The position numbers and the translations under genes are program-made. Positions 19,748-41,110 of a DNA stretch of 64,000 bases are shown piece by piece. This stretch comes from Octopus vulgaris (Eukaryota): positions 57,350,001 through 57,414,000 of the forward strand of contig OX597829.1 in assembly GCA_951406725.2 (NCBI GenBank), written 5' to 3'. The notes under the pieces were generated by a model, which searched no databases, was not told the DNA's origin, and saw only the letters and a list, made by a program, of their open reading frames with translations. Position 1 is the stretch's first letter. Every line of letters begins with the position of its first letter.

Positions 19748-19838
19748 CCTACGGACGTACGTTTCGAAATTAAGTTTTAGGAAAGCATAAGAATTAGATA
19801 ATTATGTCTTACCCAACTTCTTTTCTCATCAGCGTAGG
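19748..19838 (-). ncRNA. Type-I hammerhead ribozyme, intact core, extended stem II (family D)
   Basis: Minus: cctacg | CTGATGA | gaaa..aagtt..cataa...ttatg..aactt..tttc (60 nt) | GAAA | cgtacg | TC | cgtagg. Perfect 6-bp stem I, palindromic stem III acgtacgt, GUC site. Confidence 0.88.
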
Positions 19839-20584
19839 ACACTACAATTATGAATAATTGTATATTAAATTTCGAGGTACTAGAAGACATCATCTCAACT
19901 CAGTATCAGAGCGAGCTAAAGCCGTTACCAGTATCACCAAATTCAAAGTGTGAATGAAAGTTTGTCACCAACCCCCTCCCACCAGCGTGCAGCCAAGACA
20001 AGATGCTGTGGTCATTTACTGGGATGAAATGAACTCGCCTTTTCAAGAACACGAATTTTTTATATTTGACTCTATTGAATATATGTCACAATTATGAACT
20101 ACTACATCATACTCTTTAAACATATAGCATGAACTCTCTTTATTATATATAATTTTTTTTGATAAGGTTCTTCATTTCAAGAACCGAAGCATGTTAAAAA
20201 TTAAAATTTGTCTAATATAGCAGCATTTTCAAACTTCATTTTATATATATATATATATATGGATATATATATATATGTATATGTATATGTATATATGTAT
20301 ATGGATTTGTAGTGGACTGTCGGTTGTGGTTGAATATCTTCATAGTGTTTTGTTCATTTGTTCTAATATTTTTACATCTTTCTTTAATTTATGGGGCTGA
20401 AATATTTCTTACTTTCCATTAGTAAATAATTTTCGCCATTATATCATTTTTATATATATTGATAGTTATAAGTTACGATAGATATTAATTATTGGTGCAG
20501 ATGGGGCAGATGAGGGCAGCTGCATCGAACTCTTTCATGCACCAAAAGGCAATTGCTAAAAAGCATTCGTGAAGTAAAATCATG

Positions 20585-20660
20585 TAGCAACACCAAATGG
20601 CGGTGCCCCAGCATAGCCACAGCTTGTGAGCTGAAACTAGATAAAAATAAAAAATAAATA
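20585..20660 (+). mobile_element. Short 3' tail of CR1/L2-type LINE
   Basis: ggcggtgccccagcatagccacagcttgtgagctgaaacta plus A-rich tail, matching 17651-17690. Confidence 0.7.
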
Positions 20661-21104
20661 AAAAATATTATATCTATTTATTTAGATTTTTTTATAAAGG
20701 GATCTAACGTATTACATTTAATTTAATTTGAGAATTAATTTTGTTAGACAATATATTATTTAATTTTTAGGTGGTATATTAATTAAGTAGTATTAAATTT
20801 AAGATAATTAAGTATATATTAATTGATATTTAGTCCACTATATTATAGAGTGATATATTAAATCTATAGATACTACACATATTTATTAATTATATAGTTA
20901 GCTTATTTAATGAGTTTGTCTATATTTGAACCATTTCTTATTTTGATTACAATATTAATGACTTGTACTAGCATTGTGTATATTAATTAATTTTAAAGTA
21001 TTGAATAATTTAAGTATTGTTTTTAGTTTTCACTTAATGTATATTTAGTATCTTATATATATATATATATATATATATATATATATATATATATATAAAA
21101 TTAT

Positions 21105-21502
21105 ATTTATTAGTCATTTGAGTGCGGTCATGCTGGAGCACCACCTTTAGTCGAGCAAATCGACCCCAGGACTTATTCTTTGTAAGCCTAGTACTTATTC
21201 TATCGGTCTCTCTTTGCCGAACCGCTAAGTTACGGGGGCGTAAAAACACCAGCATCGATTGTCAAGCGCTGGGGGGGGGGGACAAACACAGACACACAAA
21301 CATATACACACAGATACATATATATATATTCATATGTACGACGGGCTTCTTTCATTTTCCGTCTGCCAAATCCACTTACAAGGCTTTGGTCGGCCCGAGG
21401 CTATAGTAGAAAACACTCGCCCAAGGTGCCATGCAGTGGGACTGAACCCGGAACCATGTGGCTGGTAAGCAAGCTACTTACCAAACAGTCACTCCTGCGC
21501 CT
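21105..21502 (-). mobile_element. tRNA-derived SINE, full length
   Basis: Reverse complement of the 5237-5632 family. Confidence 0.9.
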
Positions 21503-21536
21503 ATTAATTAATTGTTTTATTATTCTAGTTTATTTT

Positions 21537-21639
21537 TAACCTGATGAGTCGCTATATTTATATCGAAGTGATTTTACTATTACTATTAATTTTTTACTAT
21601 AATCATTTCTTAAATATAGCCACGAAACGCGTGTCGTTA
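21537..21639 (+). ncRNA. Type-I hammerhead ribozyme, extended stem II (family E)
   Basis: taac | CTGATGA | gtcgctatattta...taaatatagccac (76 nt) | GAAA | cgcgtg | TC | gtta. Confidence 0.82.
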
Positions 21640-22274
21640 TTCTACTAAATATATACGTTTTTATTATTATTTTGCAATTTACTTAATCAACGGTACATTA
21701 TTGTTATTTTAATTTTAATATTTCTATTGTATGTAATTTTCTAGATGGTGTAATTTAATTGTTCATTTTGAATTGATAATGGGTGGTGTTTTCTAATTTA
21801 TATATATATATATACCTCTCTCTCTATATATATACCTCTCTCTCTCTCTCTCTACATATATATATATATATATATATATATATATATATATATATATATA
21901 TATATATATATATATATATATATATATATATATATATATATATATATATATATATATATATCTATATATATATATATATATATATATATATATATATATA
22001 TATATATATATATATATATATATATATATATATATATATATATACATATATATATATATATATATATATATATATATATATATATATATATATATATATA
22101 TATATATATATATATATATATATACATATATATATATATATACCTCTCTCTATATATATATACTTCTCTATATATGTATATACCTCTCTCTCTCTCTCTC
22201 TCTCTCTCTCTCTATATATATATATATATATATATATATATATATATATATATATATATATATATATATATATA

Positions 22275-38644: not shown

Positions 38645-39243
38645 CTACACACAACCCCCTCAACAATGAAGCTTTTGACACCATCCTCCAGAACATTCCT
38701 GTATTAAAAAAGGACCATAGAATGAACCAAATCCTCCTAACACACGAAATCATAAAGAGCAAAAGGCAACCCAAATCATTGAAAACCATCCTAACAAATG
38801 CCAAAGTACTGCCAACCACAACAACTAAACCCACAGTAAACAAATGCAATAGACCCAACTGTGGTATATGCATCAACCTAATAGAAGATCCGGAATTCCT
38901 TTTTAAACAAGGACAACGTTTCACAGTAAAACACAACTTCACATGCGCATCAGAAAACCTAGTATATGTCTTAACTTGCTCGGGCTGTAATGAACACTAC
39001 ATAGGCCAAACTAAAAATAGCCTCCGCCAACGCATGACTGTCCACAGATCCCAAATAAAAATACAGGAATACAGAAAAATAGCACTTAGTGCACATATTG
39101 ATACTTGTGCCGCACAACTTCATCCCAATTTTAGAATCTTTCCCCTCTACAAATTTAAAGACAATGCCACTCATACCCAGCGAATAACCATGGAATCCCA
39201 CCTTATTAATAAATACAGACCACTTCTAAACACATCCCCCTAA
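38645..39243 (+). pseudogene. Second (inverted) copy of the PLE GIY-YIG region
   Basis: ORF 38623-39243 is identical to 37492-38013 over the shared part except G/D in IEGPE/IEDPE. Confidence 0.93.
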
Positions 39244-39784
39244 CACGAACCCACAACAAACACACTTACACCTGCACACACCCTACACACACTTTTACCC
39301 AGATATTAACACCATGACACACGCAAATATATGGTTCCACACATACACATAATTTGATACGGGTGCAAAACATCCAACACTATTTTTTGGAAACGACTGT
39401 AAATATTGACTTCACACAAACACGTTGCTTCCCGATACAGGCACAAGGCCAGCAGAACTATAAATATTGAAAATTGTACCCACACACGCACACATATATA
39501 CACGCGCGCGCGCCCCAACATACATATAAACACACACACACACACGCGCGCGCGCGCGCACACACACACACACACACATACATATAACTCTTCGTGTCCT
39601 AAACGAACTTACTTATCCAGCTCAAATTCAGTCAAGCGGAAAATACACTCCTTAACTACGCACTAAAAAGCTATTTAAAATATCCACATGACGTCTACTG
39701 ACCAGCCTGAACAATAAGAATTTTCAACAACGCTATTTTCGAAAACTCCATACACCACCCACAACAACATTCATTCTAAACATT

Positions 39785-39996
39785 CACGTGACCTCTCTAT
39801 TATGACCACACCCACGTGACCTCTTTATTATGACCAATAAGAAATTTTAGGCGCGACACTAGCCAAATTTTAACATCTCTGGAGCCTATTTTCTTACCCC
39901 AACACCAACTTCCATTCAAACATTCACGTGACCCCTTTATAATGACCAATCAAAATTGTATTGACTATTGTCCACAAGAAATTTTAGGCGCGAAAC
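39785..39996 (+). promoter_or_regulatory. Putative pLTR promoter module (E-box, CCAAT, E2F-like), internally duplicated
   Basis: cacgtgac at 39785, 39813 and 39925. ccaat at 39834 and 39946. ttttaggcgcga at 39845 and 39982. Mirrored at ~36745-36960. Confidence 0.4.
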
Positions 39997-40120
39997 CAAG
40001 CAAATCTTAAACAACTCTGGAGCCTCTTTTTTCACATATAAGAGACAGCAAACCCAACATAAAGTCAGATAAGAGAAAAAAAATCTATCAGAAAGGAACT
40101 CTATCTCTCTTAAAAAGATA

Positions 40121-40160
40121 TCTTTTGATAAGCATAACAAATGCGCAACCGGTAAAATGA
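40121..40160 (+). ncRNA. Variant hammerhead-like motif in right PLE terminus (family G)
   Basis: tctt | TTGATAA | gcat-aacaa-atgc | GCAA | ccgg | TA | aaatga. Confidence 0.45.
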
Positions 40161-40394
40161 ACTTTCACCTAATTAAATACACTCTCTCTTAAATTATTTT
40201 GTCAGCATTTTCTTCATTTCCTTTCTTTATATATCACAACTCGTGTTCCACATCTCCTTTTTTAAATATATATATATATATATATATACATATATATATA
40301 TATGTATAGATATATATATAGATATCTATCTATATACATATATACATACATACATGCATGCATATATATATATATATATATATACATATATATA

Positions 40395-41110
40395 TATAAA
40401 TTAGAAAAAAACCACCTTTTATGAATTCAACAATGAAAAAATTTAATTGTATCATATAGAAAAAAATTACATCCTTTTTTTTAGTATATATTACTTAGTT
40501 AGAATAAGATTTAACTTTAATGTTCATTAAATAAATTAATTAATTAATAATGTAATTTAATGTATATAGATTAAATTATAGTATTTTAGTTTTCACTTAA
40601 TGTATACGTTGTATTATATATATATATATATATTTGTTTTAAATAATTTAATTAATTGTATTTTATTTTCTAGTAATGATATATTATAGTTTGTTATTCT
40701 TTTCTTTTATGTGTTAAATTTTATTTTTATTGATATAATAAATATTTATACCTATTTATGCTATTTTTATTTACACCAGAATATATATTTGTTAAGATAT
40801 TTCGTATTTTACAAGATTATATATGTATATTTATTTATTTAATTATTTTATTGTTTTTATCTTTGACCTGAAGAGTAGCTATATTTAAATTGAATTGATT
40901 TTACTGTTATCAGTTCTTAAATATAGCCACGAAACACGTGTAGTCATTTTACCAAATATACACGCTTTATTTATTATTTTGTACATTACTTAAACATTGG
41001 TATATGTTTTTATCTTACGTTTAATTTTTTCTATACGTTGTAATTTTTTTCTGTATGGTATAATAAAATTTTTTCATTGTTGAATTGATAAAAGCTGTTT
41101 TTTTCTGATA
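40395..41110 (+). mobile_element. Hammerhead element family E, copy 2, with inverted ~80-bp copy of its 3' end at the 5' side
   Basis: 40401-40471 is inverted at ~41039-41108. Flanked by (TA)n. Confidence 0.75.
40864..40946 (+). ncRNA. Type-I hammerhead ribozyme, extended stem II (family E)
   Basis: tgac | CTGAAGA | gtagctatatttaa...ttaaatatagccac (56 nt) | GAAA | cacgtg | TA | gtca. Confidence 0.85.

Follow-up and report, generated by a model that had tools for sequence, protein, structure and literature searches.

The stretch of DNA analysed here, called the window, comprises 64,000 nucleotides (nt) of the Octopus vulgaris genome (assembly GCA_951406725.2, contig OX597829.1, positions 57,350,001-57,414,000; positions below are relative to the window). 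It carries six hammerhead ribozyme motifs, A to F, in which the stem II segments between the two core halves measure 60, 76, 86, 56, 61 and 70 nt, respectively, all of them at the coordinates and lengths given in an earlier note on this DNA. The explanation that we favour, if with modest confidence, is that these 56-86-nt arms are tolerated extensions of stem II that are kept paired by selection during retrotransposition so that the core can close, and that the hammerheads of B/D, C and F sit on Penelope-like elements (PLEs) of the Hydra clade and that of A on a unit lacking an open reading frame (ORF).

All six motifs have a type I layout, in which an open stem I of 3-6 base pairs (bp) flanks the core, stem II shuts at the core, and the insert is followed by GAAA and by an 8-nt palindrome as stem III (Table 1). 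The CUGANGA...GAAA core and an NUH cleavage triplet are present in the window copies of A, B, C, D and E. The F copy at 54284 reads CUGAUAA, with G8 lost, and has a G at the cleavage position; the majority of family F copies have CUGAUGA and GUA, and this copy with its two core mutations is likely dead. Since B and D are 73% identical across 154 nt, they are counted as one superfamily and the six motifs therefore as five repeat families (A, B/D, C, E and F). The earlier note had described each arm as a long hairpin of unrelated sequence, which is true only in part: besides the kinship of B and D, folding z-scores of the single copies (200 shuffles) were -2.1 for A, -4.7 for B, -7.6 for C and -5.5 for D, so that four of the six arms fold clearly better than chance, and weak for E (-1.6) and F (-1.4). 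The window copy of E, taken singly, fails to fold along its full length, although other family E copies do.

Table 1. Hammerhead motifs of the window and the repeat copies that carry them
Feature	Positions	Strand	Stem I	Core	Arm (stem II)	Stem III	Predicted cut	Remarks
Hammerhead A	19748..19838	-	6 bp (19838-19833 with 19753-19748)	19832-19826	60 nt (19825-19766)	19762-19755, palindromic	3' of 19754 (GUC)	
Family A element	19460..20030	-						Nearly one full unit of ~583 nt, young, ORF-less, ends in (TA)n
Hammerhead B	21537..21639	+	4 bp	21541-21547	76 nt (21548-21623)	21627-21634	3' of 21635	3' end of Hydra-clade PLE
Hammerhead C	27315..27425	-	3 bp	27422-27416	86 nt (27415-27330)	27326-27319	3' of 27318	3' end of Hydra-clade PLE, copy ~27145-27680
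Hammerhead D	40864..40946	+	4 bp	40868-40874	56 nt (40875-40930)	40934-40941	3' of 40942	Relative of B with shorter arm
Hammerhead E	4978..5067	+	5 bp	4983-4989	61 nt (4990-5050)	5054-5061		Old family; right half of inverted pair 4300-5177
Inverted hammerhead E copy	4411..4535	-						Decayed
Hammerhead F	54277..54368	+			70 nt (54284-54353)			3' end of Hydra-clade PLE; likely dead copy
Extra family F hammerhead copy	18478..18609	-						Core intact, G at cleavage position
Extra family F hammerhead copy	19131..19264	+						Core A9 changed
Family F fragment	53515..53648	-						5' half of hammerhead missing

Motifs of this kind are abundant throughout the 2.8-Gb genome. A first core pattern found 2,416 matches against 3 for its reversed control, and the genome-wide count, again made with one exact core pattern and the reversed pattern as control, gave 3,571 matches (control 81) with 8-38 nt between the core halves, 7,979 (69) with 39-69 nt, 4,819 (62) with 70-100 nt and 1,328 (66) with 101-131 nt, which excludes chance at the genome-wide level. 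Long arms of 39-131 nt thus make up 14,126 of the 17,697 matches (controls total 278 over all lengths), a share that may be overstated, since the pattern leaves out the odd-length stems common in short-armed relatives; it also takes only some stem III palindromes and leaves out family A, and in some of the long matches a core sequence occurs by chance ahead of a shorter motif. First-look candidates, which are not copy numbers, amounted to 1,986 for A, 1,687 for C, 1,451 for B, 680 for F and 519 for E. Arms range from 55 to 93 nt in B/D, from 66 to 100 nt in C and from 20 to 71 nt in the E superfamily, which has a single basal helix, and within superfamilies their length shifts, in several copies through visible local duplications. 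A relative of family C (e.g. loci L357-L362) has arms of 101-122 nt, some of them extended by a TA microsatellite within the arm.

The host elements were traced from the ORFs near the hammerheads. Family G, with a 55-nt arm the commonest family among the 2,416 first-pattern matches, forms the terminal repeat of a 3.6-kb unit in which an intact ORF of 899 amino acids, encoding a reverse transcriptase (RT) followed by a GIY-YIG endonuclease, lies between two hammerheads; the hammerhead is in sense, ~600 nt past the stop codon, and has tandem or inverted partners. In family C the hammerhead follows, at a distance of 2.4 kb, a related ORF with 50% RT identity to G. Two B loci align colinearly across 2.4 kb as far as a GIY-YIG remnant, with RT remnants further upstream, and ahead of the F hammerhead there are remnants of endonuclease and RT in sense orientation. 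An upstream walk from E at three loci met no ORF remnant; hammerheads resembling the short-armed relatives of E are Hydra-linked. Among the protein motifs, KWK was read in B and in a 73-nt relative of F, RWL in G, and DKT in place of DKG in G, B, the F relative and the short-armed lineage. The CxCX5C linker is found in C, in F and in a relative of B and is degenerate in G; CxxC occurs in G, B, C and F, and CxH was read in the G ORF, in which inspection by eye found no CCHH motif. Pfam did not recognise the Hydra ORFs, and the sole animal-named homologue among 120 comes from Argonauta. The 3' untranslated regions (UTRs) of these elements reach 0.6-3 kb. In 88 of 90 loci from families A, B and C a TA run lies at most 700 nt past the cut site, although in B the nearest run may be internal to the element; insertions meet (TA)n ~160-300 nt past the cut site, outside the arm. 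Partial tandem (pLTR) copies and inverted 5'-truncated copies are present, as in PLEs. The motifs of G agree with the definition of the Hydra clade in PMC8557442. Judged by these ORFs and motifs, B/D, C and F represent 3' ends of PLEs of that clade, which bears out the PLE-type assignment of the earlier note.

Two other hosts were considered and rejected. A link to Naiads, suggested by a remark on a 'half core' (PMC8557442), fails for all linked families because GIY-YIG lies C-terminal to the RT, not N-terminal, in every linked ORF (the intact one of G and the remnants of B, C and F). The window itself contains a different PLE at 36512-40227, which we take to be Neptune-like, with a C-terminal GIY-YIG domain (PF01541) and a CX4CxxC linker, present as a long copy on the minus strand and an inverted 5'-truncated copy on the plus strand. 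The long-armed hammerheads were not linked to this GIY-YIG PLE (37492-39243), as it belongs to a different clade and no canonical core was found on its sense strand; antisense near its 3' end lies a degenerate motif resembling a hammerhead (6-bp stem I, 32-nt spacer, core at 40205 on the minus strand).

Changes on both sides of predicted pairs were counted on structures derived from the same sequences that were tested, with shuffle controls that ignore kinship. In family A with five relatives, 98.5% of cells are paired and both-sided changes occur in 4 of the 16 pairs of the arm and in 3 of the 6 of stem I, and the combined 7 of 22 was reached in none of 500 shuffles. In family C (11 rows) 97% are paired and 4 of 31 pairs are double-changed (8/500 shuffles), one pair occurring as U-A, U-G and C-G, and the 97-nt family (13 rows) has double changes in 12 of 36 pairs (3/500 shuffles). 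Alignments of the other families gave double changes in 3/23 predicted pairs for B/D, 5/23 for F and 6/12 for G. These results for families A, C and the 97-nt family agree with the expectation of structured arms with compensatory changes across copies, and in the 97-nt family and family A such changes extend to the distal helices. End-to-end pairing was found in 21 of 33 arm clusters against 2.2 expected, where the clustering put several AT-rich families together as one cluster of 79 arms. In five families (155 rows, best matches only), variants shared between copies kept the pair in 12 of 22 cases and private variants in 20 of 71. On the evidence of sequence comparison, the arm is under selection between subfamilies. 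A covariance model built from family A matched A and, weakly, B, and nothing else.

As regards the origin of the long arm, the earlier note had envisaged five families converging on the same architecture. A quick maximum-likelihood tree of the RT (38 rows, midpoint-rooted, without named Hydra references) instead groups the RTs of families B, C, F and G together (SH-aLRT 98, with three database proteins in the same clade) and leaves the 20-nt-armed lineage outside; a likeness to Hydra-1_Obim was noted by eye in the supplement of PMC8557442. As the RTs of B, C and F fall into one clade, inheritance fits better than five-fold convergence, and we favour a single ancestral lengthening for B/D, C, F and G, perhaps with a second in the E lineage. 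Among 78 Hydra-type loci from marine metagenomes, searched with arms of up to 200 nt allowed, 49 contain a hammerhead (41 distinct), with arms all of 10-29 nt. A looser search of the remaining 29 loci, many of them incomplete, added more short motifs and turned up a few matches with long spacing. Most of the latter contained a short motif within them or sat at the ORF start, and none of the 29 loci was judged to have a long-armed hammerhead. The arm of the octopus families is two to eight times as long as that of these relatives, and in many arms the G+C fraction is 0.22-0.46, compared with a median of 0.50 in the relatives.

Folding predictions suggest how such arms could be accommodated. The basal four pairs of stem II are predicted in native context in seven of nine representatives, and shuffling the arm interior lowers predicted basal pairing to at most 0.15 in all seven families where the helix forms. 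Stem II would thus accept an insert if it folds back, an unpaired insert of equal length is predicted to block the basal helix, and selection on the transposing RNA would keep inserts paired, with arm length probably shifting by local duplications and deletions. Within one molecule stem III consists of 2 bp, with a monomer probability of at most 0.02, and duplexes of the palindromes between two molecules are predicted at -9.5 to -11.1 kcal/mol; the 8-nt palindromes differ by family. By analogy with other PLE hammerheads, for which a dimer model has been put forward (PMC4209133; PMC6765202), the ribozymes would cut the element RNA as dimers, perhaps aided by the element protein.

Several points weigh against the reading as a tolerated, paired extension. 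Tolerance leaves unexplained why about four fifths of the matches here are long when none of the 41 distinct hammerheads of the relatives is; A and G need more than 8 bp in the predictions, and in two of the nine representatives (E and F73) the basal helix is absent from the native-context prediction. Only 13 of 33 arm clusters have z below -2, and the sense strand is not significantly more stable than the antisense strand (20/33 clusters, p = 0.2). RNAalifold failed to recover the arm of the 97-nt family, in which only 79% of cells pair, and likewise missed the family C arm in a mixed alignment of that family; the shuffle control takes no account of relatedness, the RT tree is a quick, midpoint-rooted version, and E and A have no direct link to an ORF.

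A first alternative is that the core depends on the long arm for its stability: with an AU-rich 3' UTR, a stem I of 3-4 bp and no loop-loop contact, the extra pairing would nucleate the fold. The canonical contact of loop 1 with loop 2 over a 4-bp stem II was indeed not found in these motifs, which have no terminal loop at 4 bp; B has 13 uninterrupted basal pairs. Truncation to 4 bp lowers predicted basal pairing in six of seven families, family A is predicted to need nearly the entire arm (0.68 compared with at most 0.48) and family G ~10 bp, and the low G+C fraction of many arms relative to the relatives' median points the same way. However, with 6-8 bp the predicted value is at least 0.98 in B, C, D, F and the 97-nt family (not monotonic in the last), the strongest basal helix belongs to the longest arm of the window (C), and short-armed families are abundant in the same genome. 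The suggestion of the earlier note that the arm stabilises the core thus survives, as a prediction, for A and G, and does not extend to five of the seven families, for which 6-8 bp would suffice; as an explanation of the long arms we consider it unlikely.

A second alternative holds that the arm is a binding or timing element, that is, a double-stranded RNA handle for the RT-endonuclease or a means of delaying or aligning dimer formation in long transcripts. The hammerhead of an Anolis PLE cuts only with its protein (PMC11167929), which leaves some room for a protein-binding role of the arm, and both the compensatory changes as far as the distal helices and the retention of a long arm by the ORF-less family A accord with such a role. 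On the other hand, the families have arms of unrelated sequence, ~40 to 130 nt long, no internal loop common to the families was found at a fixed distance from the core, and insertions here reach (TA)n well beyond the cut and not in the arm; in Anolis, reverse transcription begins in an AC-rich stem loop and cleavage is unnecessary in vitro (PMC11167929). We therefore regard this alternative as doubtful. Its boldest form would be that a Hydra-clade PLE lineage has made stem II a functional module of 40-130 nt, a double-stranded handle by which its own protein recognises, folds or times the ribozyme. Though we give this form little credence, it would, if true, represent a natural protein-gated hammerhead, the long-armed forms would be the main ribozyme class of the genome, and one would suspect long-armed hammerheads in the 'half-core' PLEs described as having none, among them the Naiads of octopus and squid. 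Stem II is also the site that engineers use for the insertion of aptamers.

Thirdly, the arms could be by-products of fold-back copying at the level of DNA or complementary DNA, without selection at the RNA level. These elements often form inverted structures, sense and antisense strands do not differ in folding overall, and single copies decay evenly: changes private to a copy amount to 0.0119 per site in the core, 0.0099 in the paired arm and 0.0095 in the flank (in the same five families), which indicates that inserted copies decay neutrally. Nevertheless, double-sided changes and G-U intermediates separate the subfamilies, the closing pair of the arm directly abuts the core in 21 of 33 clusters, and the arms are interrupted rather than perfect inverted repeats, so that this origin appears highly unlikely. 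Least probable of all is that the arm persists because it offers ADAR a double-stranded target for A-to-I editing, one of the options raised in the earlier note, since, for all the high RNA editing of cephalopods and the helices of 10-17 bp, paired arm positions show no excess of private A-to-G changes (3 against 8 T-to-C, and 0.0015 against 0.0052 in the flanks; small counts, best matches only). The tolerated, paired extension of stem II thus remains the explanation that we would, with some reserve, put first.

Family A differs from the other families in having no ORF. Its unit is ~583 nt long, the 40 best full-length matches are 98-100% identical, and relatives have 71-79% identity; copies are mostly solo or partial-tandem (spacing 583-584) within (TA)n, with some inversions, and no long arrays were found among 30 loci. 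Family A resembles non-LTR retrozymes. At loci L103-L132 the 3' ends cluster at two distances beyond the cut site, ~193 and ~297 nt, possibly because reverse transcription starts at two different places. Public contigs matching 19460-20040 (family A or close relatives) come from runs labelled with five organisms, which indicates that the family is common to related species. Head-to-tail joints of family A on such contigs (none on record as RNA; four runs guessed to be RNA, two of unknown kind) were discarded as a sign of expression because the same joint exists in the genome, so that they prove nothing about RNA. Two loci with short tandem hammerhead pairs, L373 (2026 and 2457) and L374 (953 and 1222), with spacings of 431 and 269 nt, are possible retrozyme-like units.

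Further motifs of the hammerhead type occur in the window. At 58598-58846 there is an inverted pair with intermediate arms of 31 nt (58690, minus strand) and 28 nt (58757, plus strand) and a 9-nt stem III of the type listed for Hydra PLEs. A repeat at 43122-43261 and 56873-57009 contains a hammerhead-like motif with a 21-nt arm, in which C3 is changed in the 43172 copy; loci L235 and L308 have intact motifs like it, with a loopless stem III. Another repeat family (6949-7336 and 11912-12023) contains, at 7328 on the minus strand, a hammerhead core whose spacer measures 10 nt and whose stem I is unclear. Apart from these, the window contains a transposase ORF (24332-25075) flanked by 229-nt inverted repeats at 23607-25243, presumably Tc1/mariner-like, and fragments of LINE-like endonuclease/RT ORFs at 9442-10314, 14737-16824, 34804-35628, 44597-47159 and 62589-63068.

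Standard models largely overlook the long-armed motifs, as had been anticipated. Rfam Hammerhead_1 (RF00163) aligns to A over the whole model with E = 0.0014 but scores 23.6 bits against a cut-off of 34, matches none of seven other long-arm loci and reports nothing at cut-off within the window, a shortfall that we attribute to the long insert. An E-value scan of the whole window with Rfam gave only microsatellite matches among the best 150 of 309. The published RNAmotif descriptor admits at most 7 bp and a 10-nt loop, or ~26 nt (PMC4209133), the 'long helix II' of PMC13725137 measures 6-8 bp, and PMC3088659 and PMC7229834 describe short stems. Our search, which did not extend to Lunse et al. 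(2017) or the Repbase and Dfam consensuses, turned up no account of arms this long in animal PLEs, and to this extent they are not already catalogued. The long-armed motifs are thus real and abundant and apparently an undescribed variant; the catalytic motif and the host element are both of known kinds, and no new function is claimed. At least 14,000 motifs with an intact core fall outside the Rfam cut-off and the standard descriptor here, hence ribozyme counts in such genomes are too low, and as PLE families said to lack hammerheads were searched with spacers of 7-17 nt (PMC8557442), those searches deserve to be repeated with long spacers. The arms also offer a natural series from 20 to 130 nt on related cores with which to ask what role PLE hammerheads play and why their cleavage is slow when protein is absent.

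Compared with known systems, family A shares with non-LTR retrozymes (Cervera and de la Peña, 2020, PMC7229834; Li et al., 2026, bioRxiv 10.64898/2026.07.22.740005), which have been proposed to derive from PLEs (bioRxiv 10.64898/2026.07.22.740005), the non-coding unit, the single type I hammerhead, the tandem and solo copies and a unit length inside their range of 51-972 bp, and differs in its 60-nt stem II and its mostly solo or partial-tandem copies in (TA)n. In metazoan PLEs, the minimal hammerheads (Cervera and de la Peña, 2014; PMC4209133) likewise sit in terminal repeats, have a short stem I without evident loop-loop contact and palindromic positions for dimer pairing, and form many families per genome with covariation. 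Contrary to the very short stem II that the earlier note ascribed to them, their helix II is of 7-8 bp, larger than usual; in the octopus motifs stem III is an 8-nt palindrome and not absent. The closest precedent for the arm length comes from two spike moss elements, PLE-X1_sMoe and PLE-X1_sTam, which have ~53 and ~48 nt between the core halves and are flagged as non-canonical (PMC8557442, File S2). These, however, are single cases on Chlamys-related plant elements lacking the endonuclease, drawn with a short stem and a large loop, and the available part of that source reports no covariation for them. Closest in overall make-up are the hammerheads of Hydra-clade PLEs (Craig et al., 2021; PMC8557442), which are also of type I, in sense near the 3' end, with a palindromic stem III and a variable first pair of stem II, on elements that share the C-terminal GIY-YIG ORF, the RWK-like, DKT, CxCX5C and CxxC motifs and insertion at (TA)n; their stem II, including that of Hydra-1_oBim, has 3-7 bp and loops of 3-10 nt, whereas here it spans 39-131 nt with 20-36 predicted pairs.

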